This document shows, one piece after another, positions 3,005-32,288 of a stretch of 64,000 bases of DNA (position 1 is the stretch's first letter; each line of letters starts with the position of its first letter). Location: NCBI RefSeq assembly GCF_050320075.1, contig NZ_CP190018.1. One strand, given 5' to 3'. A program made the translations under genes and the position numbers. The notes beneath the pieces are model-generated. The model was not told the DNA's origin, did no database searches, and worked only from the letters and a program-made list of their open reading frames with translations. The stretch is from Escherichia coli (GTDB taxonomy: Bacteria; Pseudomonadota; Gammaproteobacteria; Enterobacterales; Enterobacteriaceae).

Positions 3005-3562
3005 ATGCTGACAGTGCTGTTTTATGTGCTGTTGGGTTTAGGCGCAGCACACTTCATTTACGAGCGAATCATTTTGCCGTCCATCCGACTTCATTATAGA
3101 AACCAATTGTTTGCGCTTCGTGATGTCGCTAGGAGGAAAATCATTGATGGAGGTTCCGATACTTCCATGCAAGCGGCAACACTTGTGCATGACTCATTGA
3201 ATAACGCTATCAATAGATTGCATTTACTCACGTTGCCAAACAAATTTCGTGCTCAAAAGCGTATGGCAGAAAACCATGCAATAAGGCAGAAAATTCGGCG
3301 TGAGATAGATGTTTTCAAACGCTGTGATGATAGAGAAGTTGTTGATGTACTGTTTAAATCCGGTCGGATACTTGAAAATGTACTGTTATTCAATAGCTTA
3401 ATGTTATTGCTTTACATGTTTCCATTTGTCCTTGCTGTATGGTTCTGTGTTAGGGTCATAAAGACAGCAAGTAGTTTAGTACAGTGGGTCAAAGGAAGAG
3501 ATTTAGAGGAAGCTATAATGCTGCTTCCTGATACTCAGGTTGAAAAGGTTGTATACGCATAA
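3005..3562 (+). CDS. Membrane protein, 185 aa, hydrophobic N-terminal and C-terminal segments (cargo)
   Basis: ORF track; AGGAG-like RBS 7 nt upstream of ATG; 20 bp after the preceding ORF, so co-operonic; hydrophobic segments MLTVLFYVLLGLGAAHFIY and LMLLLYMFPFVLAVWFCV. Confidence 0.65.
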   Translation: MLTVLFYVLLGLGAAHFIYERIILPSIRLHYRNQLFALRDVARRKIIDGGSDTSMQAATLVHDSLNNAINRLHLLTLPNKFRAQKRMAENHAIRQKIRREIDVFKRCDDREVVDVLFKSGRILENVLLFNSLMLLLYMFPFVLAVWFCVRVIKTASSLVQWVKGRDLEEAIMLLPDTQVEKVVYA

Positions 3563-6713: not shown

Positions 6714-7748
6714 TCAGCCGTTGTCAGTGTCCAGTGAGTAGTTTTTAAAGCGGATGACCTCCTGACCGAGCCAGCCGTTTATTTCCCGAATCCTGTCCTG
6801 TAACGGGATAAGCTCATTGCGGACAAAGACCTTTGCCACTTTCTCAATATCGCCCAGTGACCCGACGTTCTCCGGCTTGCCGCCCATCAACTGAAAGGGG
6901 ATGCGGTGCGCGTCCAGCAGGTCAGCGGCGCTGGCTTTTTTGATATTAAAAAAATCGTCCTTCGTTGCCACTTCACTGAGCGGGATAATTTTAATGCCGT
7001 CGGCTTTCCCCTGTGGGGCATAGAGAAACAGATTTTTAAAGTTATTGCGGCCTTTCGACTTCACCATGTTTTCGCGAAGCATTTCGATATCGTTGCGATC
7101 CTGCACGGCATCGGTGACGTACATGATGTATCCGGCATGCGCGCCGTTTTCGTAATACTTGCGGCGGAACAGCGTGGCCGACTCATTCAGCCAGGCAGAG
7201 TTAAGGGCGCTGAGATATTCCGGCAGGCCGTACAGCTCCTGATTAATATCCGGCTCCAGCAGGTGAAACACGGAGCCGGGCGCGAAAGGTGTCGGCTCGT
7301 TGAAGGACGGCACCCACCAGTAAACATCCTCCTCAACACCACGGCGGGTATATTTTGCCGGTGAGGTTTCCAGTCTGATGACCTTACCGGTGGTGCTGTA
7401 GCGCTTTTCCAGAAACGCATTACCGAACACCAGAAAATCCAGCACAAAGCGGCTGAAATCCTGCTGGGAAAGCCACGGGTGCGGAATAAACGTTGAAGCC
7501 AGAATATTACGTTTGACGTAAATCGGTGAGCTGTGATGTACGGCAGCACGCAGGCTTTTTGCCAGACCGGTAAAGCTGACCGGTGGCTCATACCATCTGC
7601 CGTTACTGATGCACTCGACGTAATCCAGAATGTCACGGCGGTCGAGTACCGGCACCGGCTCACCAAAGGTGAATGCCTCCATTTTCGGGGCGCTGGCGGT
7701 CATTGTTTTTGCCGCAGGTTGCGGTGTTTTCCCTTTTTTCTTGCTCAT
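6714..7748 (-). CDS. Q: Portal protein (P2 gpQ-like)
   Basis: 344 aa, same length and position as P2 Q; start overlaps stop of terminase gene by 1 nt. Confidence 0.9.
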   Translation of the reverse strand: MSKKKGKTPQPAAKTMTASAPKMEAFTFGEPVPVLDRRDILDYVECISNGRWYEPPVSFTGLAKSLRAAVHHSSPIYVKRNILASTFIPHPWLSQQDFSRFVLDFLVFGNAFLEKRYSTTGKVIRLETSPAKYTRRGVEEDVYWWVPSFNEPTPFAPGSVFHLLEPDINQELYGLPEYLSALNSAWLNESATLFRRKYYENGAHAGYIMYVTDAVQDRNDIEMLRENMVKSKGRNNFKNLFLYAPQGKADGIKIIPLSEVATKDDFFNIKKASAADLLDAHRIPFQLMGGKPENVGSLGDIEKVAKVFVRNELIPLQDRIREINGWLGQEVIRFKNYSLDTDNG

Positions 7749-9520
7749 CAGTAAAACTCCAGAATGGTGGATGTCAGCGGGGTGCTGATACCGGCGGTGA
7801 GTGGCTCATTTAACAGGGCGTGCATGGTTGCCCAGGCGAGGTCGGCGTGGCTGGCTTCCTCGCTGCGGCTGGCCTCATAGGTGGCGCTGCGTCCGCTGCT
7901 GGTTATGGTCTTGCGGATAGCCATAAACGAGCTGGTGATGTCGGTGGCGCTGACGTCATATTCCAGACAGCCACGGCGGATGACGTCTTTTGCCTTGAGC
8001 ACCATTGCGGTTTTCATTTCCGGCGTGTAGCGGATGTCGCGCGCGGCGGGATAGAACGAGCGCACGAGCTGGAACACGCCGACACCGAGGCCGGTGGCAT
8101 CAATACCGATGTATTCGACGTTGTATTTTTCGGTGAGTTTGCGGATGGATTCCGCCTGAGTGGCAAAGTCCATGCCTTTCCACTGGTGACGCTCAAGTAT
8201 TCTGAATTTGCCACCGGCCACCACCGGCGGTGCCAGTACCACGCATCCGGCGCTGTCGCCACGGTGTGACGGGTCGTAACCAATCCATACCGGACGTGAG
8301 CCGAACGGATTGGCGGCAAACGGCGCATAGTCTTCCCATTCTTCCAGCGTGTCGACCATGCAGCGTTGCAGCTCCTCAAACGGGAACACCGATGCCTTGT
8401 CGTCAACAAATTCACACATGAACAGGTTTTTAAAATCGTCGGCGCTGTTTTCGCGTTTGAGCTGCTCAATGTCGAACAATGTGCAGCCGCCTTTCAGGGC
8501 GTCCTCAATGGTGACAATCTGCCGCCACTGGCCGTCCGCACAGAGAAGACCACCGGCAAGGGCGTTATGACTGACGTCGATTTCCACACGTTCGGCGGCG
8601 CTGGCGCGTCCCCGGTTGAACAGTTCACCCGACCAGAACGGGTAGGCGTCGTGCGCCAGCGTGGACGGGGTGGAGAAATAGGTCGAGCGCAGGTGACTCT
8701 GTGAGGCCATACCTGATGCCACCTTACGCAGTACCTGAAAATTCGGGATCCAGAAAATCTCGTCGACGTACAGGTCGCCGTTATGGCTCTGTGCGGTGTT
8801 GGAGTTGGTGCCGAGAAAAATCAGTTTTGCGCCGTTATTGCCCAGGACAATCGGGTCACCGGTCAGGTCAACGTCAACCAGCCGGGCAAAGGCGATGATG
8901 TATTCGCGGAACACATACGCCTGCGTTTTACTGGCCGACAGAAAAATCTGGTTATGACCGGTTTTCAGGGCGCGCAGCAGCGCCTCGCGGGAAAAATAAA
9001 ACGTCGCGCCAATCTGGCGGGATTTCAGGATATCGCGGATGCGGTGCTCAAGCCCGGCGCGATACCAGTGCAACTGATAGTCGAAAGACTGCTCAAAGAA
9101 AATCTGCTCCAGCTTTTCGATGGCCTCGTCACTGAAAAAATTCTTTTTCGGTTTGCGACGCCCGCCTTTGTTGCGGTTAGCAACGTTCGGATTAAGGTCT
9201 GCCTCGTTGCCGGTCTGACTGTAGCGGTTGACCCGCGCCAGTCGTTCAATCTGGCGTCCGAGCAGGTCAATTTCCTTGAAGTCACCGCCGGTTTTCTGCG
9301 GTTTTATGATGAGCTGGGTCAGCCGCGCTTCCAGACTCATTTCGACACGGCTGATGGGGGCAACGCTGTCCCAGCCGTCGCGCTGTTTCCAGCTCTGCAC
9401 CGTCGGGCGTTTCATCTGCAACATGGCGGCAATCTGCGGCACGGAAAACCCCTGCCAGTACAGCTGCGCCGCCTGACGACGCGGGTCGTGTAAAAGAGTG
9501 GTGTCTGTGGTGATGGTCAT
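7748..9520 (-). CDS. P: Terminase large subunit (P2 gpP-like)
   Basis: 590 aa from ATG at 9520 with GAGGT RBS (track ORF starts 30 nt further upstream); divergent from the O-N-M operon as in P2. Confidence 0.9.
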   Translation of the reverse strand: MTITTDTTLLHDPRRQAAQLYWQGFSVPQIAAMLQMKRPTVQSWKQRDGWDSVAPISRVEMSLEARLTQLIIKPQKTGGDFKEIDLLGRQIERLARVNRYSQTGNEADLNPNVANRNKGGRRKPKKNFFSDEAIEKLEQIFFEQSFDYQLHWYRAGLEHRIRDILKSRQIGATFYFSREALLRALKTGHNQIFLSASKTQAYVFREYIIAFARLVDVDLTGDPIVLGNNGAKLIFLGTNSNTAQSHNGDLYVDEIFWIPNFQVLRKVASGMASQSHLRSTYFSTPSTLAHDAYPFWSGELFNRGRASAAERVEIDVSHNALAGGLLCADGQWRQIVTIEDALKGGCTLFDIEQLKRENSADDFKNLFMCEFVDDKASVFPFEELQRCMVDTLEEWEDYAPFAANPFGSRPVWIGYDPSHRGDSAGCVVLAPPVVAGGKFRILERHQWKGMDFATQAESIRKLTEKYNVEYIGIDATGLGVGVFQLVRSFYPAARDIRYTPEMKTAMVLKAKDVIRRGCLEYDVSATDITSSFMAIRKTITSSGRSATYEASRSEEASHADLAWATMHALLNEPLTAGISTPLTSTILEFY

Positions 9521-9693
9521 GAATACCTCGCCGTGATGAATACACGGCAAGGCTACTGAGTCGCGCCCCGCGATTCGCTAAGGTGCTGTTGTGTCAGTGA
9601 TAAGCCATCCGGGACTGATGGCGGAGGATGCGCATCGTCGGGAAACTGATGCCGACATGTGACTCCTCTAATCACTATTCAGGACTCCTGACA

Positions 9694-16754: not shown

Positions 16755-16837
16755 TACGCTCTCCTCGAATGTTGTATGGTCGTTCTACAAATGAATCCAG
16801 ATAGCATAACTTTTATATATTGTGCAATCTCACACGC

Positions 16838-17473: not shown

Positions 17474-17817
17474 CTGCGCGTTATCTCGGAATGAATCGCA
17501 GTGATGGCCTGACTGTCACTGACCTTGAGCATATCAGCCAGAGTATCGGCGATATCCTGCGTACCCCCGTCGGCTCACGGGTGATGCGTCGTGATTACGG
17601 CTCGTTGCTGGCGTCAATGATTGACCAGCCGCAGACCCCGGCGCTTGAGTTGCAGATTAAGGTCGCCTGTTACATGGCAGTGCTGAAATGGGAACCCCGC
17701 GTCACCCTGTCATCCGTCACCACGGCGCGCAGTTTTGACGGGCGAATGACGGTCACGTTAACCGGTCAGCACAACGACACCGGCCAGCCACTTTCGTTAA
17801 CCATCCCTGTGAGTTGA
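17470..17817 (+). CDS. W: Baseplate protein (P2 gpW-like)
   Basis: 115 aa, size and position. Confidence 0.85.
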   Translation: MTARYLGMNRSDGLTVTDLEHISQSIGDILRTPVGSRVMRRDYGSLLASMIDQPQTPALELQIKVACYMAVLKWEPRVTLSSVTTARSFDGRMTVTLTGQHNDTGQPLSLTIPVS

Positions 17818-19263: not shown

Positions 19264-21417
19264 ATGAGCACAAAATTCAAAACCGTTATCACCACTGCCG
19301 GTGCAGCAAAGCTGGCAGCGGCAACCGCACCGGGAGGGCGGAAGGTCAATATTACCACGATGGCCGTCGGGGATGGCGGTGGTAAATTGCCTGTCCCGGA
19401 TGCCGGACAGACCGGGCTTATCCACGAAGTCTGGCGACATGCGCTGAACAAAATCAGCCAGGACAAACGAAACAGTAATTATATTATCGCAGAGCTGGTT
19501 ATTCCGCCGGAGGTGGGCGGCTTCTGGATGCGTGAGCTTGGCCTGTACGATGATGCGGGAACGTTAATTGCCGTGGCGAACATGGCCGAAAGTTATAAAC
19601 CTGCCCTTGCCGAAGGCTCAGGGCGTTCGCAGACCTGCCGCATGGTCATCATCGTCAGCAGTGTGGCCTCAGTGGAGCTGACCATTGACACCACAACGGT
19701 GATGGCGACGCAGGATTACGTTGATGACAAAATTGCAGAGCATGAACAGTCACGACGTCACCCGGACGCCTCGCTGACCGCAAAAGGTTTTACTCAGTTA
19801 AGCAATGCGACCAACAGCACGTCTGAAACACTGGCCGCAACGCCGAAAGCGGTTAAGGCCGCATATGACCTTGCTAACGGGAAATATACCGCACAGGACG
19901 CTACCACAGCGCGAAAAGGTCTTGTCCAGCTAAGTAGTGCGACCAACAGCATGTCTGAAACGCTCGCCGCAACACCAAAAGCCGTTAAGACGGTAATGGA
20001 TGAAACGAACAAGAAAGCGCCATTAAACAGCCCTGCACTGACCGGAACGCCAACGACGCCAACTGCGCGACAGGGAACGAATAATACTCAGATCGCAAAC
20101 ACGGCTTTCGTTATGGCCGCGATTGCCGCCCTTGTAGACTCGTCGCCTGACGCACTGAATACGCTGAACGAGCTGGCGGCGGCGCTGGGCAATGACCCGA
20201 ATTTTGCTACCACCATGACTAATGCGCTTGCGGGTAAGCAACCGAAAGATGCCACTTTGACGGCGCTGGCGGGGCTTGCTACTGCGGCAGACAGGTTTCC
20301 GTATTTTACGGGGAATGATGTTGCCAGCCTGGCGACCCTGACAAAAGTCGGGCGGGATATTCTGGCTAAATCGACCGTTGCCGCCGTTATCGAATATCTC
20401 GGTTTACAGGAAACGGTAAACCGAGCCGGGAACGCCGTGCAAAAAAATGGCGATACCTTGTCCGGTGGACTTACTTTTGAAAACGACTCAATCCTTGCCT
20501 GGATTCGAAATACTGACTGGGCGAAGATTGGATTTAAAAATGATGCCGATGGTGACACTGATTCATACATGTGGTTTGAAACAGGCGACAACGGCAATGA
20601 ATATTTCAAATGGAGAAGCAAACAAGGCACCACAACAAAAGACCTGATGAATCTTAAATGGGATGCTTTGTATGTTCTTGTCAATGCCATTGTAAATGGC
20701 GAAGTCATATCAAAATCAGCAAACGGCCTACGTATTGCTTATGGTAATTACGGATTCTTTATTCGTAATGATGGTTCAAATACATACTTCATGTTGACAA
20801 ACTCCGGTGACAACATGGGGACTTATAACGGATTAAGGCCATTATGGATTAATAACGCTACTGGCGCTGTTTCGATGGGGCGTGGCCTTAATGTTTCAGG
20901 AGAAACACTTTCAGACCGTTTTGCTATTAACAGCGGTAATGGTATGTGGATTCAGATGCGCGATAACAACGCTATCTTTGGGAAAAATATAGTTAACACT
21001 GATAGCGCCCAGGCCTTGCTCCGTCAGGACCATGCCGACCGCAAATTTATGATTGGCGGTCTGGGAAATAAGCAATTTGGCATCTACATGATTAATAACT
21101 CAAGGACAGCCAATGGCACCGATGGTCAGGCGTACATGGACAATAACGGTAACTGGCTTTGTGGTTCGCAAGTTATTCCCGGCAACTATGGCAATTTTGA
21201 TTCCAGATATGTGAAAGATGTTCGACTTGGTTCACAGCAATATTATGGAGTGAACAACTGGCAAACATGGAATTTCCAGTGCCCGTCAGGTCATGTATTG
21301 TCTGGTATTAATGTTCAGGATACAGGGTCCAACTCTGCCGATAATATAGCGGGCGTTTATTACAGACCCGTTCAAAAGTATATAAATGGCACCTGGTATA
21401 ATGTAGCGAGCGTTTAA
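19264..21417 (+). CDS. H: Tail fibre protein (P2 gpH-like), 717 aa with AT-rich C-terminal receptor-binding region
   Basis: Position after I; N-terminus conserved phage-fibre type; composition shifts in the distal half. Confidence 0.85.
19786..20001 (+). repeat. Two imperfect ~84-bp direct repeats inside gene H, encoding a duplicated G(F/L)(T/V)[19 protein letters not shown] motif
   Basis: Repeat copies at about 19786-19869 and 19918-20001 read directly in DNA and protein. Confidence 0.6.
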
Positions 21418-21418
21418 T

Positions 21419-21946
21419 ATGATGCACTTAAAGAACATAAAAGCGGGTAACGCTAAAACACTGGAACAGTATGAGTTAACAAAGAAACACGGAGTTATCT
21501 GGCTTTACTCTGAGGACGGAAAAAACTGGTATGAGGAAGTGAAGAACTTTCAGCCAGACACAATAAAGATTGTTTACGATGAAAATAATATTATTGTCGC
21601 TATCACCAGAGATGCTTCAACGCTTAATCCTGAAGGTTTTAGCGTTGTTGAGGTTCCTGATATTACCTCCAACCGACGTGCTGACGACTCAGGTAAATGG
21701 ATGTTTAAGGATGGTGCTGTGATTAAACGAATTTATACGGCAGAGGAATTGCAGCAGCAGGCAGAAAATCGGAAAGGCAGACTTCTTGCAGATGCTGAAT
21801 CCGTGATTTTGCCGCTGGAGCGCGCTGTCAGGCTGAATATGGCAACAGATGAGGAACGCAGCCGACTGGAAGCATGGGAACGCTACAACGTTCTGGTCAG
21901 TCGTGTGGATACTGCAAATCCTGAATGGCCAGAAATGCCGCAATAA
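21419..21946 (+). CDS. G: Tail fibre assembly protein (P2 gpG-like)
   Basis: 175 aa, immediately downstream of H. Confidence 0.8.
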
Positions 21947-22240
21947 GTTGTATGAGTTCTGGTGGGAGTTTACATATCTATGGCACAGAGTAAAGCCTAA
22001 TCTGACAGTCCGCTCTGTGCCAGGAGCGGACATCCCACACTTCTGCTTCTGTGGCCAAAATCCGTATGCCACTACACTGCTGGCTTTTTAAGCGGCATTA
22101 ATCATATGGCTTCCTGTGAAAACGAAGGGTAAAATGGATAGGTATACGCTATAGAATTATGTATATGCTACATATACTAACAACGAAAGCAGGTTGCAAA
22201 GCAGCCTGTATAATCATCACTTAAGTTCATGGAATAAAAT

Positions 22241-22891
22241 ATGCATACTGGCTTTAAGGGAACTTATGACGCACTTTTGAGGCTTGAGAAGGCTATAGAA
22301 GGTCTGACCATCCAAGATGGGTTGATGACGAATACTCTTGGAGTTGGTGTTCCGGCAATAACATCAGATGACCTAATTGACCAAATAATTTGCATTATTA
22401 ACAAGCTGAAAGCATATGGTGATATTGAACTAACTGAAAAAGAAATTGCCGCTTATTCATCTCTCCCTGAAAAAATTGACACACTCATTAGAGTTCACGT
22501 CCCAGAGTTCTCAGGCGTTAACTCCGCACGAGCTATATCTTCATATATGCTAACACTGGCATATGTTGACCATTTCTTGGATGAATCGTTTACATGGAAG
22601 CGGTTGGATAATGCTAATTTACTTCCTAGAAATTTAAGCAGAAAAATTAAAAGCATGGAGGCGAGAATTAACAAGATTGATCCTGAGATGGATGCTCTTG
22701 AGAGTAAAGTTAAAACGATTAATGATGCTCATGTAGCTGCAGAAAATATACCTATAGACTTAAATGAATTAAAGGAATACAACAAAGAAGCATCTGATTT
22801 AAAGGAGAAGATATCTAAAACTCATTTCAGTTTAGAGTCCCAAGAAGAAGCCGCAAAAAAAATTATTGATGAGTTGCAAGAAAAAATATAG
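22241..22891 (+). CDS. Cargo protein at the Z/fun position, N-terminal part: 216 aa, soluble, coiled-coil-rich C-terminal half; probably the 5' portion of a longer frameshifted gene
   Basis: ORF track; TATAAT-like -10 element about 27 nt upstream; ends in TAG at 22889-22891 directly after an A6 tract. Confidence 0.6.
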   Translation: MHTGFKGTYDALLRLEKAIEGLTIQDGLMTNTLGVGVPAITSDDLIDQIICIINKLKAYGDIELTEKEIAAYSSLPEKIDTLIRVHVPEFSGVNSARAISSYMLTLAYVDHFLDESFTWKRLDNANLLPRNLSRKIKSMEARINKIDPEMDALESKVKTINDAHVAAENIPIDLNELKEYNKEASDLKEKISKTHFSLESQEEAAKKIIDELQEKI

Positions 22892-23016
22892 AGGCTGCCC
22901 GGTATCTGGCTCTTTGCGAAGAGGCTATTAGGGCTTCAACATCGAAAGGCTTAGCAGGAGCATTTGAAATAAAAGCAGATAAGCTTAACCGAAGTATCCA
23001 ACTATGGGTTGCCGGT

Positions 23017-23541
23017 TTGGCAGTTGCTTTGGGGCTTGGTGGTTTAGTCGGATATGAAAGATTGAAAGTTCTTTCTGGGGTTTTGAATAACCCAAATCCC
23101 AGTGCGGTAGTAATACTCACTCAATTACTATTATCTGTTTTTAGCATAGGCGCCCCTCTTTGGTTTGCTTGGATGTCTACAAAACAAATTAATCAACGTT
23201 TCAAACTCGCAGAGGATTATGCTTATAAAGCTTCTGTGGCTAAAGCGTATGAGGGATACAAAAATGAGGCATGCAAGGTATCAGATGGAGAGTTCGAAAA
23301 ACGCTTATTTGATTCTGCGCTAAGTCGACTTGAAGAGGCTCCATTGCGTTTTGTGAAAGATGAAGATCATACTACTCCTTGGACAGAAATGCTTAATTCT
23401 AAGTCGTTTCAAAAATTCTTAGATGCCTCCATTGATAATGTAAATTATGTTAAAGGGATTATAAGTAAGAAAGGCCAATCAGCAGCTAAAGCAAGCAATG
23501 ATGAGGTTAATCACATTGAAAAACTAAAGAATGAAGCTTGA
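23017..23541 (+). CDS. Cargo protein, C-terminal part: two TM helices plus about 130-aa C-terminal domain; reading frame is open back to 22873 with no in-frame ATG or RBS, consistent with fusion to the upstream ORF through a -1 shift
   Basis: Track start is a TTG; hand translation of 22873-23016 is stop-free and continues the coiled-coil (EAARYLALCEEAIRASTSKG...). Confidence 0.5.
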   Translation: MAVALGLGGLVGYERLKVLSGVLNNPNPSAVVILTQLLLSVFSIGAPLWFAWMSTKQINQRFKLAEDYAYKASVAKAYEGYKNEACKVSDGEFEKRLFDSALSRLEEAPLRFVKDEDHTTPWTEMLNSKSFQKFLDASIDNVNYVKGIISKKGQSAAKASNDEVNHIEKLKNEA

Positions 23542-23553
23542 ATTATAATACTG

Positions 23554-23576
23554 CCTCCGCAAGTGCGAGGCTTTTA
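23554..23576 (+). terminator. Rho-independent terminator after the Z/fun-position cargo gene
   Basis: gcctc-cgcaagtgc-gaggc stem-loop followed by TTTT. Confidence 0.6.
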
Positions 23577-23582
23577 CATTAA

Positions 23583-23611
23583 CTGCCCTGCAGTAAATCT
23601 AGGGCAGTTTT
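23583..23611 (+). terminator. Second tandem terminator
   Basis: ctgccct-...-agggcag stem-loop followed by TTTT. Confidence 0.55.
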
Positions 23612-23910
23612 ACGTGCTAGGGGCTGAGTTGGCTAACCGGCTCTTTCAGCAGTCGGTCTGCCGCTATTGAGCTGGGGCTCAACGTGTGTGAGAACGTCAG
23701 ATTCAATACGTAGGTATGGCCTCACTCCTTATTTGAGCACTCGCAATACAGAGCGTTAAAGTGATCGCCTTTCGGTACTGATCTGCGAATGACTTTGGGG
23801 GATTTGCACTCAGGGGAGAGTAACTTCGTGACAACTTCCGCTCTTAGCTAAAAGCAGACTGTCATATTTGATAGCGTTTCGGCTATGTAAATAGTCAGTC
23901 GGAAAATGAG

Positions 23911-23928
23911 TGTGTACAAATCAGGACA
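23911..23928 (+). promoter_or_regulatory. P2 late-promoter activator site (TGT-N12-ACA dyad) upstream of FI
   Basis: tgt-gtacaaatcagg-aca read in sequence about 120 nt upstream of the FI start; P2/P4 late promoters bound by Ogr/Delta carry this dyad. Confidence 0.45.
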
Positions 23929-24051
23929 GGCGGGCTGATTTCCCGCCTTTTCTTTATCTGTTGTTTCATCCCCTGACCAGCCAGGTCAAATAGCGTCTCA
24001 TGTACTACCCAACGGAAAATAGTTGCACCCATTAACCACGGAGTTAAACGG

Positions 24052-25242
24052 ATGAGTGACTATCATCACGGCGTGCAGGTGCTGGAGATTAACGACGGCA
24101 CCCGCGTCATTTCCACCGTATCCACGGCCATTGTCGGCATGGTCTGCACGGCCAGCGATGCGGATGCGGAAACCTTCCCCCTCAATAAACCGGTGCTGAT
24201 TACCAATGTGCAGAGCGCAATTGCAAAGGCCGGTAAAAAAGGCACGCTGGCGGCATCGTTGCAGGCCATCGCCGACCAGTCAAAACCGGTCACCGTTGTC
24301 GTGCGCGTGGAAGACGGCACCGGTGATGACGAGGAAACGAAACTCGCGCAGACCGTTTCCAATATCATCGGCACCACCGACGAAAACGGTCAGTATACCG
24401 GACTAAAAGCCCTGCTGGCGGCGGAGTCGGTAACCGGTGTTAAACCGCGTATTCTCGGTGTGCCGGGGCTGGACACCAAAGAGGTGGCTGTTGCACTGGC
24501 ATCCGTCTGTCAGAAGCTGCGCGCTTTCGGATATATCAGCGCATGGGGCTGTAAGACCATTTCCGAGGTGAAAGCCTACCGCCAGAATTTCAGCCAGCGT
24601 GAGCTGATGGTCATCTGGCCGGATTTCCTCGCATGGGATACGGTCGCCAGTACCACCGCCACCGCGTATGCCACCGCCCGTGCGCTGGGCCTGCGCGCTA
24701 AAATCGACCAGGAGCAGGGCTGGCATAAAACGCTGTCCAACGTCGGGGTAAACGGTGTTACCGGCATCAGTGCCTCTGTATTCTGGGATTTGCAGGAGTC
24801 CGGCACCGATGCTGACCTGTTGAACGAGTCAGGTGTCACAACGCTGATTCGCCGTGACGGTTTCCGATTCTGGGGTAACCGTACCTGCTCTGATGACCCG
24901 CTGTTCCTCTTTGAAAACTACACCCGCACCGCGCAGGTGCTGGCCGACACGATGGCTGAGGCGCACATGTGGGCGGTGGACAAGCCCATCACCGCAACGC
25001 TGATTCGCGACATCGTTGACGGCATCAATGCCAAATTCCGTGAGCTGAAAACAAACGGCTATATCGTGGATGCGACCTGCTGGTTCAGCGAAGAATCCAA
25101 CGATGCGGAAACCCTCAAGGCCGGAAAACTGTATATCGACTACGACTATACACCGGTGCCTCCTCTTGAAAACCTGACCCTGCGCCAGCGTATTACCGAT
25201 AAATACCTGGCAAATCTGGTCACCTCGGTTAACAGCAATTAA
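24052..25242 (+). CDS. FI: Tail sheath protein (P2 gpFI-like)
   Basis: 396 aa, size and position. Confidence 0.9.
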   Translation: MSDYHHGVQVLEINDGTRVISTVSTAIVGMVCTASDADAETFPLNKPVLITNVQSAIAKAGKKGTLAASLQAIADQSKPVTVVVRVEDGTGDDEETKLAQTVSNIIGTTDENGQYTGLKALLAAESVTGVKPRILGVPGLDTKEVAVALASVCQKLRAFGYISAWGCKTISEVKAYRQNFSQRELMVIWPDFLAWDTVASTTATAYATARALGLRAKIDQEQGWHKTLSNVGVNGVTGISASVFWDLQESGTDADLLNESGVTTLIRRDGFRFWGNRTCSDDPLFLFENYTRTAQVLADTMAEAHMWAVDKPITATLIRDIVDGINAKFRELKTNGYIVDATCWFSEESNDAETLKAGKLYIDYDYTPVPPLENLTLRQRITDKYLANLVTSVNSN

Positions 25243-28711: not shown

Positions 28712-29191
28712 ATGATGCTCGCGTTAGGTATGTTTGTTTTTATGCGCCAGACGCTGCCACACCAGATCATGCAGCGTGAATCAGATTATCGCTGGCCGTC
28801 AAATTCCCGTATCGGTAAACGGGATGCCTACCAGTTTCTCGGCGTTGGCGAGGAAAACATGACGCTGGCCGGTGTGCTTTATCCCGAACTGACCGGCGGC
28901 AAGCTGACGATGACCACGCTCAGGCTGATGGCAGATGAAGGCCGGGCGTGGCCGTTGCTGGATGGCACCGGCATGATTTACGGCATGTATGTCATCAGCA
29001 AGGTGAGTGAAACAGGGAGTATTTTCTTTGCAGACGGCACACCACGGAAAATTGATTTTACGCTGTCGCTCACCCGCGTTGATGAGTCACTGGCCGCGCT
29101 TTATGGCGATATCGGTAAACAGGCGGAATCGCTCATCGGTAAGGCTGGCAGTATGGCGACTAAATTCACGGGTATGACGGGGGCGGGATAA
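28712..29191 (+). CDS. U: Tail protein (P2 gpU-like)
   Basis: 159 aa, size and position. Confidence 0.85.
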   Translation: MMLALGMFVFMRQTLPHQIMQRESDYRWPSNSRIGKRDAYQFLGVGEENMTLAGVLYPELTGGKLTMTTLRLMADEGRAWPLLDGTGMIYGMYVISKVSETGSIFFADGTPRKIDFTLSLTRVDESLAALYGDIGKQAESLIGKAGSMATKFTGMTGAG

Positions 29192-30354
29192 TGCTGGATG
29201 CGCTGACATTTGATGCAGGCAGTACGCTGACGCCGGATTACATGCTGATGCTCGACAGCAGGGATATTACCGGCAATATCAGCGACCGTCTGATGAGCAT
29301 GACCCTGACGGATAACCGGGGCTTTGAGGCTGACCAGCTTGATATTGAACTGAACGATGCCGACGGGCAGGTCGAGCTACCGATTCGTGGCGCTGTCCTG
29401 ACGGTGTATATCGGCTGGAAAGGTTTTGCCCTGGTATGCAAAGGGAAATTTACCGTTGATGAGGTTGAACACCGGGGCGCGCCGGATGTGGTTACCATCC
29501 GCGCCCGGAGTGCAGATTTTCGCGGGACGCTCAATTCCCGCCGTGAAGGCTCCTGGCATGACACCACGCTCGGTGCGATTGTTGAGGCGATAGCCTCCCG
29601 TAACAAGCTGGAAGCCAGTATCGCTCCGTCACTGGCCGGAATTAAAATCCCGCACATCGACCAGTCGCAGGAGTCCGATGCGAAATTCCTGACCCGTCTT
29701 GCAGAACGCAACGGCGGTGAGGTGTCGGTAAAAATGGGAAAACTGCTGTTTCTCAAAGCGGGGCAGGGGGTGACGGCCAGCGGTAAAAAAATCCCGCAGA
29801 TTACCATCACCCGCAGCGATGGCGACCGTCACCATTTTGCGATTGCTGACCGTGGAGCCTACACCGGTGTAACGGCAAAGTGGTTACACACCAAAGACCC
29901 GAAGCCTCAAAAGCAGAAGGTAAAACTGAAACGCAAAAAGAAAGAAAAACACCTGCGCGCACTGGAGCACCCGAAAGCGAAACCGGTCACGCAGAAGAAA
30001 GCGCCAAAAGTACCGGAAGCGCGCGAAGGTGAATACATGGCCGGTGAAGCTGACAACGTTTTTGCCCTGACTACGGTATATGCCACAAAAGCGCAGGCCA
30101 TGCGCGCCGCTCAGGCAAAGTGGGACAAACTGCAACGGGGCGTCGCGGAGTTCTCCATCAGCCTGGCTACCGGTCGGGCAGATATTTACACGGAAACACC
30201 GGTTAAAGTGTCAGGCTTTAAGCGCGTCATAGACGAGCAGGACTGGACAATCACTAAGGTGACACATTTTCTGAATAATAGCGGCTTCACGACGTCCTTA
30301 GAGCTTGAGGTCAGGCTTTCTGATGTGGAGTACGAAACAGAAGATGATGAGTGA
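29191..30354 (+). CDS. D: Tail protein (P2 gpD-like)
   Basis: 387 aa, size and position. Confidence 0.85.
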   Translation: MLDALTFDAGSTLTPDYMLMLDSRDITGNISDRLMSMTLTDNRGFEADQLDIELNDADGQVELPIRGAVLTVYIGWKGFALVCKGKFTVDEVEHRGAPDVVTIRARSADFRGTLNSRREGSWHDTTLGAIVEAIASRNKLEASIAPSLAGIKIPHIDQSQESDAKFLTRLAERNGGEVSVKMGKLLFLKAGQGVTASGKKIPQITITRSDGDRHHFAIADRGAYTGVTAKWLHTKDPKPQKQKVKLKRKKKEKHLRALEHPKAKPVTQKKAPKVPEAREGEYMAGEADNVFALTTVYATKAQAMRAAQAKWDKLQRGVAEFSISLATGRADIYTETPVKVSGFKRVIDEQDWTITKVTHFLNNSGFTTSLELEVRLSDVEYETEDDE

Positions 30355-30435: not shown

Positions 30436-30654
30436 ATGTTTCATTGTCCTTTATGCCAGCATGCCGCACATGCGCGTACAAGTCGCTATATCACTGACAC
30501 GACAAAAGAGCGTTATCACCAGTGCCAGAACGTGAATTGCAGCGCCACGTTCATCACTTATGAGTCGGTACAGCGATACATCGTTAAGCCGGGAGAAGTC
30601 CACGCCGTAAGGCCGCACCCGTTGCCGTCAGGGCAGCAAATTATGTGGATGTAA
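30436..30654 (+). CDS. ogr: Late gene transcriptional activator Ogr (zinc-finger, Cys4)
   Basis: 72 aa MFHCPLCQHAAHARTSRYITDTTKERYHQCQNVNCSATF... with C-x2-C...C-x4-C motif; GAGG RBS; track ORF extended upstream. Confidence 0.85.
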   Translation: MFHCPLCQHAAHARTSRYITDTTKERYHQCQNVNCSATFITYESVQRYIVKPGEVHAVRPHPLPSGQQIMWM

Positions 30655-30754: not shown

Positions 30755-30842
30755 TAAAAAATAAGCCCGTGTAAGGGAGATTACACAGGCTAAGGAGGTG
30801 GTTCCTGGTACAGCTAGCATTTTATGGGTTATGTTTTTCAGC
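30755..30842 (-). ncRNA. cyaR: CyaR (RyeE) Hfq-dependent sRNA
   Basis: Reverse complement reads GCTGAAAAACATAACCCATAAAATGCTAGCTGTACCAGGAACCACCTCCTTAGCCTGTGTAATCTCCCTTACACGGGCTTATTTTTT, which matches my memory of E. coli CyaR; sits between yegQ and the ogr-type gene as in K-12. Confidence 0.7.
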
Positions 30843-30926: not shown

Positions 30927-32288
30927 TCACTTACCGTGTGGGTTACGCGTGGTTTCCCCGGAGAAATTACGCATCAGCAGAGCGTAATTGAGCTCAAGAT
31001 CCTGCGGGACCGGGAGCCACACAGTATAACCATCGCCTGGTGCGACCGGCATCGCTTCACCTATGGCGTTTTCCATGTGCTCAAGGGTAAAGTTAATGTT
31101 GCCTTGCGGCGTCATCAGCTCAAGGCTGTCGCCAACGGAGAATTTATTTTTCACCGCTACCGCCGCGAGGTCCCCCTTGCGCTCACCGGTAAACTCACCA
31201 ACAAACTGCTGGCGGTCAGAAACTGAATAACCGTATTCGTAGTTCTGATAATCGTCGTGAGTATGACGACGCAGGAAACCTTCGGTATAGCCACGATGCG
31301 CCAGACCTTCCAGAGTTTCCAGCAGGCTGGTATCGAACGGTTTGCCCGCAGCGGCGTCATCGATAGCTTTACGGTAAACCTGTGCGGTGCGTGCGCAATA
31401 GTAGAAAGATTTAGTACGGCCTTCGATTTTCAGCGAATGCACGCCCATTTTGGTCAGGCGTTCTACATGGGCGATGGCGCGCAGATCTTTCGAGTTCATG
31501 ATGTAAGTGCCGTGCTCATCTTCAAACGCGGTCATATACTCGCCCGGACGCTGGGCTTCTTCGATCATAAACACTTTGTCGGTTGGCGCGCCGATACCCA
31601 GCGTCGGCTCAACATTTTGCACCGGAATCGGCTCGTACTTGTGTACGATGTTGCCAACGTCATCTTCTTTCCCTTCCTGGACGTTGTACTCCCAGCGGCA
31701 GGCGTTGGTGCAGGTACCCTGGTTCGGATCGCGCTTGTTGATATAGCCAGAGAGCAGGCAGCGACCGGAGTAGGCCATGCACAGTGCGCCGTGAACGAAG
31801 ATCTCGATCTCCATATCCGGCACCTGATTGCGGATCTCTTCAATCTCTTCCAGCGACAGCTCGCGAGAGAGGATCACGCGGGTCAGGCCCATTTGCTGCC
31901 AGAATTTCACCGTCGCCCAGTTTACGGCGTTAGCCTGCACCGAGAGGTGGATCGGCATTTCAGGGAAGTGCTCACGCACCAGCATAATCAGCCCTGGATC
32001 GGACATAATCAGCGCATCCGGCCCCATTTCCACCACCGGTTTCAGGTCACGGATAAAGGTTTTCAGCTTGGCGTTGTGCGGTGCAATGTTGACCACGACA
32101 TAAAACTTTTTCCCCAGCGCGTGGGCTTCATTGATGCCGAGCTGAAGATTTTCGTGGTTGAATTCGTTGTTGCGCACACGCAGGGAGTAACGCGGCTGGC
32201 CCGCATAAACAGCATCTGCGCCATAAGCGAAAGCGTAACGCATATTTTTCAGCGTTCCCGCCGGGGAAAGGAGTTCCGGTTTAAACAT
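30927..32288 (-). CDS. yegQ: Peptidase U32-family protein YegQ
   Basis: 453 aa, K-12 synteny downstream of baeR-yegP. Confidence 0.9.
   Translation of the reverse strand: MFKPELLSPAGTLKNMRYAFAYGADAVYAGQPRYSLRVRNNEFNHENLQLGINEAHALGKKFYVVVNIAPHNAKLKTFIRDLKPVVEMGPDALIMSDPGLIMLVREHFPEMPIHLSVQANAVNWATVKFWQQMGLTRVILSRELSLEEIEEIRNQVPDMEIEIFVHGALCMAYSGRCLLSGYINKRDPNQGTCTNACRWEYNVQEGKEDDVGNIVHKYEPIPVQNVEPTLGIGAPTDKVFMIEEAQRPGEYMTAFEDEHGTYIMNSKDLRAIAHVERLTKMGVHSLKIEGRTKSFYYCARTAQVYRKAIDDAAAGKPFDTSLLETLEGLAHRGYTEGFLRRHTHDDYQNYEYGYSVSDRQQFVGEFTGERKGDLAAVAVKNKFSVGDSLELMTPQGNINFTLEHMENAIGEAMPVAPGDGYTVWLPVPQDLELNYALLMRNFSGETTRNPHGK

Follow-up and report, generated by a model that had tools for sequence, protein, structure and literature searches.

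In phage P2, Ogr binds a partial dyad located about 55 nt upstream of late promoters that have no −35 element, and it activates RNA polymerase at these promoters after replication has begun. The variable Z/fun slot of P2-like coliphages, with its flanking inverted repeats, was reportedly described by Nilsson, Karlsson and Haggard-Ljungquist in 2004. The binding site recognized by Ogr and Delta at late promoters is given the consensus TGT-N12-ACA (PMC3931495). Additionally, a P2-like hot spot lies between gpA and gpQ, by the cos packaging site (Rousset et al. 2022, PMC9122126).

We analyzed a 64-kb stretch of Escherichia coli DNA (the window) that carries a P2-like prophage. The genes and repeats of the prophage needed for comparison with these systems are as follows.

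6714-9550, minus strand: genes Q and P
From 9628: gene O onwards
From about 16820: gene V
19264-21417: gene H, the tail-fibre gene
21419-21946: gene G, with its stop at 21946
21917-22031: left inverted repeat of the Z/fun slot, 109 of 115 positions identical to the 'left inverted repeat' of AJ512676
22241-23541, plus strand: cargo gene of the Z/fun slot, 433 aa when intact
23833-23925: right inverted repeat of the Z/fun slot, aligning to the 'right inverted repeat' of AJ512676, AJ512682 and AJ512683
24052-25242: gene FI, the tail-sheath gene, with its ATG at 24052
29191-30354: gene D
30436-30654, plus strand: ogr, an intact open reading frame of 72 aa (translation MFHCPLCQ…IMWM)

The variable Z/fun slot is situated between G and FI and here consists of one cargo gene followed by a 510-bp interval (23542-24051). 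As in the GenBank entries for this slot (AJ512676-AJ512683), both annotated repeats are present with foreign cargo between G and FI. The left repeat overlaps the last 30 nt of gene G, the right repeat stands upstream of the FI late promoter pF, and unrelated cargo lies between them. The inner end of the left repeat (21999-22030) is complementary to 23837-23868 at 24 of 32 positions. Homology to the P2 backbone restarts at the right repeat, with the matches of P2-like phages beginning at 23832-23844, and this repeat is missing from the empty-slot phages PSP3 and Yersinia P37. However, the AJ5126xx entries matched do not include the cargo seen here, which consists of a 433-aa gene and an ogr-like pseudogene, and Fun(Z) itself is absent from the slot. 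Eighteen complete E. coli genomes contain essentially identical DNA over 21900-24100. At its inner end, the left repeat also contains a perfect 8-bp hairpin at 22006-22029, GTCCGCTC-tgtgccag-GAGCGGAC, with no T-run after it, and its counterpart in the right repeat is decayed. Upstream of the slot, gene H carries two 76-nt direct repeats at 19782-19989, which are 83% identical and 132 nt apart.

The cargo gene of the window is split into frames of 216 and 174 aa by the loss of one A from an A7 run (22881-22886). The intact form is known from E. coli 4114, where the 433-aa coding sequence WP_089585673 is annotated, and the gene is likewise a single open reading frame in several further copies. 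The same split was seen in at least six RefSeq genomes; a genuine frameshift, phase variation and a sequencing error in the homopolymer are all possible explanations. Searches of the 433-aa protein identified no Pfam or PADLOC family and returned only sub-threshold coiled-coil or ATPase noise; the sole phage homologue found, at 35% identity, was from Providencia phage PSTCR8lys.

In order to assign the pF site and start in the window, we aligned it to the curated features of the P2 GenBank record (NC_001895), which lists an 'activator binding site; activation of pF promoter' at 17555-17583 and the start of the F operon at 17626-17628. The P2 activator site aligns to approximately 23957-23985 of the window and the P2 start to 24026-24028. 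A preliminary description of this DNA had proposed an Ogr-dependent late promoter in the interval before FI, and the alignment to P2 bears this out, with pF present about 50 bases downstream of the dyad that the description had singled out. The site itself was misplaced there, as it corresponds to 23959-23979 and not to 23911-23928. The features around this promoter and at the other late promoters of the prophage are listed below.

9587-9607: shared pP/pO activator site, TGTTGT-N12-CCA, assigned because 9517-9680 is 100% identical to P2 2990-3153
16770-16789, plus strand: pV activator site, TGTTGT-N11-ACA, aligning to P2 10239-10266
23911-23928: TGT-N12-ACA dyad of the preliminary description, at the outer end of the right inverted repeat
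23928-23956, plus strand: intrinsic terminator from the terminator scan, a 7-bp G+C-rich stem (23928-23948) and then TTTTCTTT
23959-23979, plus strand: predicted pF activator (Ogr) site, TGTTGT-ttcatcccctga-CCA, from alignment to P2 17555-17583
23987-24054, plus strand: pF core and leader, from the invariant columns of a nine-phage alignment, with the start taken from the P2 alignment

The predicted pF site lies 73 nt upstream of the ATG of FI, the first gene of the late operon, and the center of its TGT-N12-CCA dyad (23970.5) is about 55.5-57.5 nt upstream of the inferred start. The distance from site to start is 55.5 nt for both pO and pP. Downstream of the site are a CAAATAG box (23987-23993), a −10-like GAAAATA (24015-24021), the inferred start CAC (24026-24028), and the ribosome-binding GGAG (24040-24043), and the leader to FI is 25 nt long. 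The promoter has no −35 hexamer, and a sigma-70 scan detected no full promoter at pF. Compared with P2 pF, the promoter of the window has the same position directly upstream of FI, 92% identity over about 220 bp of alignable sequence, the GTTGT-N12-CCA core, and both the CAAATAG and the GAAAATA box; the leader and the ribosome-binding site are identical. The prophage also has an intact ogr of P2 type, and the product of this gene (30436-30654) is the activator expected at pF. The window differs from P2 in the 12-nt spacer of the site, in lacking 3 nt immediately upstream of the site and 1 nt immediately ahead of the start, and in the left half, which is TGTTGT as at pO/pP in place of the GGTTGT of P2 pF.

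To compare this region more widely, nine P2-like sequences upstream of FI were aligned. Invariant in all nine were TTGT (23961-23964), CC (23981-23982), both boxes (CAAATAG and GAAAATA), and the leader including the ribosome-binding site. A total of 114 phage records matched 23833-24060, 61 of them with at least 80% coverage. For most of the more distant records the match starts only at about 23923-23928, and for pro483 only at 23961. The terminator hairpin is kept in eight of the nine phages and folds at -15.4 kcal/mol (z = -3.0), a stability reached by none of 200 shuffles. In PSP3 and Yersinia P37, whose slot is empty, the gap between G and FI is about 135 bp and comprises the hairpin and the pF promoter. 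Since the hairpin directly follows the G stop in these empty-slot phages, it most likely marks the end of the V operon and serves as an insulator before pF.

The textbook motif performed poorly at all of these promoters. The predicted pF site matches TGT-N12-ACA at five of six positions, and the same five-of-six form, TGT-N12-CCA, is found at pF and pO/pP of P2. An exact TGT-N12-ACA is neither necessary nor enriched. The P2 segment 2990-3153 that is identical in the window includes the annotated pP/pO site (3057-3087). Using TGTTGT-N12-CCA, a pattern taken from this independent pO/pP site, only two matches were obtained in the 64 kb, namely pO/pP and pF. The preliminary description had reported that no equally clean dyad could be seen upstream of V or O/P, and the reason is that the real sites there, TGTTGT-N11-ACA (16770-16789) and TGTTGT-N12-CCA (9587-9607), deviate from the textbook motif. 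The P4 record contained no late-promoter features with which to enlarge the set of reference sites.

The remainder of the interval had been described as non-coding. No intact gene is present in it; the longest open reading frame between the cargo stop (23541) and the FI ATG (24052) is 45 aa, and RefSeq annotates nothing in the interval across 18 E. coli genomes with the same DNA. However, about half of it (23579-23832, minus strand) is a recognizable pseudogene. The description had further suggested a degraded remnant of the gene that originally occupied the Z/fun slot. A decayed gene is indeed there, but it belongs to the Ogr/Delta-like zinc-finger family rather than to Z/fun and is on the opposite strand. 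A tblastn search with the 528-aa P2 Fun(Z) against 21947-24051 identified nothing in the interval, the best hit (E = 3.4) being inside the cargo gene. The two features that follow the cargo gene are given below.

23542-23578: spacer of 37 nt between the convergent cargo gene and pseudogene, carrying the hairpin 23553-23571
23579-23832, minus strand: Ogr/Delta-like zinc-finger pseudogene, from blastn, tblastn and Pfam PF04606

Two hairpins were found by folding after the cargo stop (23553-23571 and 23583-23608), in agreement with the terminators previously proposed at this position. The hairpin at 23553-23571 (GCCTC…GAGGC and then TTTT) looks like a terminator, and the consensus terminator scan did not pick it up. 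A search of a plasmid collection gave no match to 23542-23835. The 45-aa ATG frame mentioned above (23895-24032, minus strand) extends over pF and was rejected as a gene; it is most likely an annotation artefact because the equivalent frames of P2 contain stop codons. Several phage records call a 'hypothetical protein' under 23895-24032.

The assignment of the pseudogene is based on several comparisons. Positions 23671-23748 match, on the minus strand, E. coli genes annotated as 'ogr/Delta-like zinc finger family protein' with 77-79% identity by blastn. The minus-strand translation, VTKLLSPECKSPKVIRRSVPKGDHFNALYCECSNKE*GHTYVLNLTFSHTLSPSSIAADRLLKEPVSQLSP*, is 48% identical over 71 aa to WP_012602735 by tblastn and, with the in-frame stop read as Cys, reaches 48.2 bits with Pfam PF04606 (E = 1e-12), above the cut-off of 26.3. 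The pseudogene is 68-77% identical to intact proteins of 106-107 aa (P0002-P0005), to which NCBI gives the same ogr/Delta-like name. Where it joins the right repeat, it has lost about 12 nt including the ATG. Of the zinc ligands, ligand 1 has changed from Cys to Ser (TCC, 23815-23817) and ligand 4 from Cys to TGA (23722-23724), giving S-P-E-C … C-S-N-K-E-stop at the place of the zinc motif CX2C-X22-CX4C, whereas P0002-P0005 keep all four cysteines. A frameshift precedes the last ~12 codons, as indicated by a second frame, …RKTALDLLQGS*, that matches the C-terminus of the relatives; the original stop is the TAA at 23579-23581. On the basis of the start, TGA and frameshift lesions, we classify this sequence as a pseudogene of the PF04606 family and not as a member protein.

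This family includes P2 Ogr, P4 Delta and a ~106-aa portal-adjacent form from ESSI-2-like and Klebsiella Peduoviridae, with which the pseudogene shares a profile match above the curated cut-off. It is only 28% identical to P2 Ogr and, across the zinc finger, to the product of the intact ogr of the prophage, and it sits in the Z/fun slot instead of after D, as in P2, or after the portal gene, as in the Klebsiella prophage L018 and in locus L006. Peduoviridae prophages of E. coli EcPF15 and Klebsiella (L006, 5899-6222; L018, 10001-10321) encode a ~106-aa Ogr/Delta-like activator. The activator gene overlaps the portal stop codon and therefore seems to close the terminase-portal late operon, a placement different from that in P2, where ogr follows D.

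The genomic neighborhood of the intact relatives points to the source of the cargo. In the Klebsiella P2/HP1-like prophage L018, the terminase and portal genes are followed in order by an ogr-like gene, a convergent 432-aa cargo homologue, a Toprim primase, cox and an integrase. The same convergent pair was found in Kluyvera (L019) and beside an integrase in locus L017, and the DNA of the window is about 69-70% similar to these donor-type loci through both genes. Since the intact relatives are convergent to cargo homologues and follow a portal gene, the pseudogene appears to have hitch-hiked with the cargo. In L018 the cargo homologue has the replication primase on one side and the ogr-like and portal genes on the other, which is exactly the position of the gpA-gpQ hot spot, whereas the cargo of the window occupies the other variable slot, between G and FI; the dead ogr-like gene would then be a flank of the donor locus that was carried along. 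As judged from sequence comparison, the cargo was most likely copied together with the adjacent late-activator gene from a portal-adjacent hot spot into the G-FI slot, a direction of transfer suggested by the truncated state of the pseudogene. The P2 inverted repeats were looked for around L017-L019 and L006, and none were found.

One further locus harbors the cassette outside a P2 context. A 2.5-kb ENA metagenome scaffold (L016, 1-2490) contains a cassette 97% identical to window 22012-23859, flanked not by G and FI but by an SRAP peptidase gene and a 3' fragment of a tRNA-Pro, with repeat stubs of only 16-27 nt. Searches for other contexts gave three loci in IMG/VR and three in a metagenome pattern scan, all in P2 context, so that only L016 differs. 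Its pseudogene shares the truncation and the Ser codon with the window but has TGC where the window has TGA, and an 88-aa open reading frame called there with the same truncation is 91% identical to the pseudogene. Divergence between the window and L016 is 4.3% in the pseudogene and 1.8% in the cargo coding sequence (p = 0.02), the faster change of the pseudogene being expected from relaxed constraint. A simple transfer into the P2 slot does not explain the L016 cassette. A broader scheme would treat the ~100-bp inverted repeats as the working ends of a cassette exchange by which defence-type cargo would pass from a hot spot in one mobile element to a hot spot in another, with the dead ogr-like gene as the scar of a transfer from a Klebsiella-type Peduoviridae portal-adjacent hot spot to the P2 G-FI slot and L016 as a second landing site; we regard this scheme as speculative and unlikely.

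Taken together, homology, conservation, geometry and the lesions of the pseudogene lead us to propose, with high confidence, that the interval before FI is a mosaic of five elements in which the real pF site is at 23959-23979, an Ogr-family gene has died, and the dyad at 23911-23928 has no role. The short spacer (23542-23578) would be a terminator region between the two convergent genes. It would be followed by the dead minus-strand Ogr/Delta-family gene (23579-23832), presumably passenger DNA that entered alongside the 433-aa cargo gene, was deprived of its start at the right-repeat junction and has decayed since. The third element would be the ~90-bp right inverted repeat (23833-23925), which by chance carries an exact TGT-N12-ACA. 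Next, the conserved terminator (23928-23956) would end transcription of the V operon or of the same-strand cargo and shield pF. The last element would be the late promoter pF itself, with the Ogr site at 23959-23979 and a start near 24027. According to the P2 literature and record, the Ogr of the prophage would bind this site after replication starts and recruit RNA polymerase, producing the FI-FII-E-T-U-D transcript.

The principal alternative concerns the dyad. TGT-gtacaaatcagg-ACA (TGTgtacaaatcaggACA) is present at 23911-23928 exactly as claimed, matches the quoted consensus at six of six positions, and is situated upstream of FI, where the backbone DNA of P2-type phages is conserved at 92-95%, all of which would suit the original proposal that it is the Ogr/Delta site of the FI late promoter. 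The annotated pF site of P2, however, aligns 51 bp further downstream, and the dyad aligns to P2 sequence outside that annotation. The center of the dyad is at about -107 from the start inferred from P2 and not at about -55; if transcription began 55 nt downstream of the dyad, the start would be at ~23975, within the activator site annotated in P2, and the corresponding −35 zone would be the stem of the terminator that separates the dyad from the promoter. P2, in which pF was defined, reads TGA…GCA at this position, and P2-EC30 and phage 899 read TGA…ACA. The region is missing altogether from five of the nine P2-like phages (PSP3, Yersinia P37, pro483, YpM_22 and P2-EC45), in each of which the downstream promoter is retained. 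Against an expectation of 13.66±4.06 from dinucleotide-preserving shuffles of the window (n=100), only eight exact TGT-N12-ACA were counted in the 64 kb, at least eight were present in 96 of the 100 shuffles, and one chance occurrence in a 510-bp interval is expected about 6-11% of the time. None of the eight falls at the pP/pO or pV promoters. We therefore consider it highly improbable that the dyad is the late-promoter site of FI. A slightly less remote, though still very doubtful, proposal is that it works as a second Ogr site, either as an auxiliary or sink for pF or as a leftward minus-strand late promoter into the Z/fun slot. The motif is its own reverse complement, a minus-strand TATCAA (23873-23868) would place a start ~7 nt further downstream at about 58 nt from the dyad center, and the dyad is exact in three of the six distinct backbones that have the repeat. 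Both half-sites nevertheless vary among close relatives including P2, counterparts of the CAAATAG and GAAAATA boxes are absent from the minus strand at the right spacing, and downstream on that strand is only a pseudogene without a start codon. The 92-95% conservation of the repeat is about what would be estimated for neighboring P2 backbone, and on this estimate no extra constraint need be invoked. Because the motif is not enriched, is polymorphic in both halves and stands upstream of a terminator, we consider that the dyad most likely arose by chance within the backbone DNA. Another exact TGT-N12-ACA (TGTAAGGGAGATTACACA) is present at 30770-30787, 116 nt after ogr, in what we take to be the core of the P2 attachment site; because it is beside a yegQ-like host gene (30927-32288, minus strand), it is probably a marker of the right prophage end and not a promoter.

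The other alternative concerns the Ogr-like frame, which might still be functional as a 43-aa peptide initiated at TTG 23834, through read-through of the TGA, or as a regulatory RNA. A 43-aa frame with a TTG start does exist (23703-23834), the nine copies compared from P2 contexts are 99.4-100% identical in this sequence, and the cargo-side part of the interval (23542-23835) is 99.7-100% identical in the 18 E. coli genomes. This near-identity can be attributed to recent common descent of the whole prophage segment, and the same lesions are present in all nine copies. The frame has lost its native start and two of its four zinc ligands, its C-terminal half cannot be reached and its 3' end is frameshifted; the divergence from L016 exceeds that of the adjacent coding sequence, and no RNA family was detected when 22500-24500 was searched against Rfam at E ≤ 1. 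Continued function of this frame is thus the least probable of all the readings weighed here, and the five-element mosaic with a dead activator gene is retained.

The pF promoter is already known P2 biology, and the understanding of Ogr-dependent transcription is unchanged by the present results. For the annotation of related prophages, the textbook TGT-N12-ACA is of little use for locating P2-type late promoters, as it misses all three real sites here and matches a bystander; homology to mapped P2 sites or the longer TGTTGT-N11/12-(C/A)CA are better locators. The ogr-like pseudogene, although a small evolutionary footnote, is a datable scar, which would indicate that cargo of the G-FI slot can come from the portal-adjacent hot spot of another Peduoviridae lineage, flank included, and in this way it makes a modest addition to what is known about exchange between hot spots.
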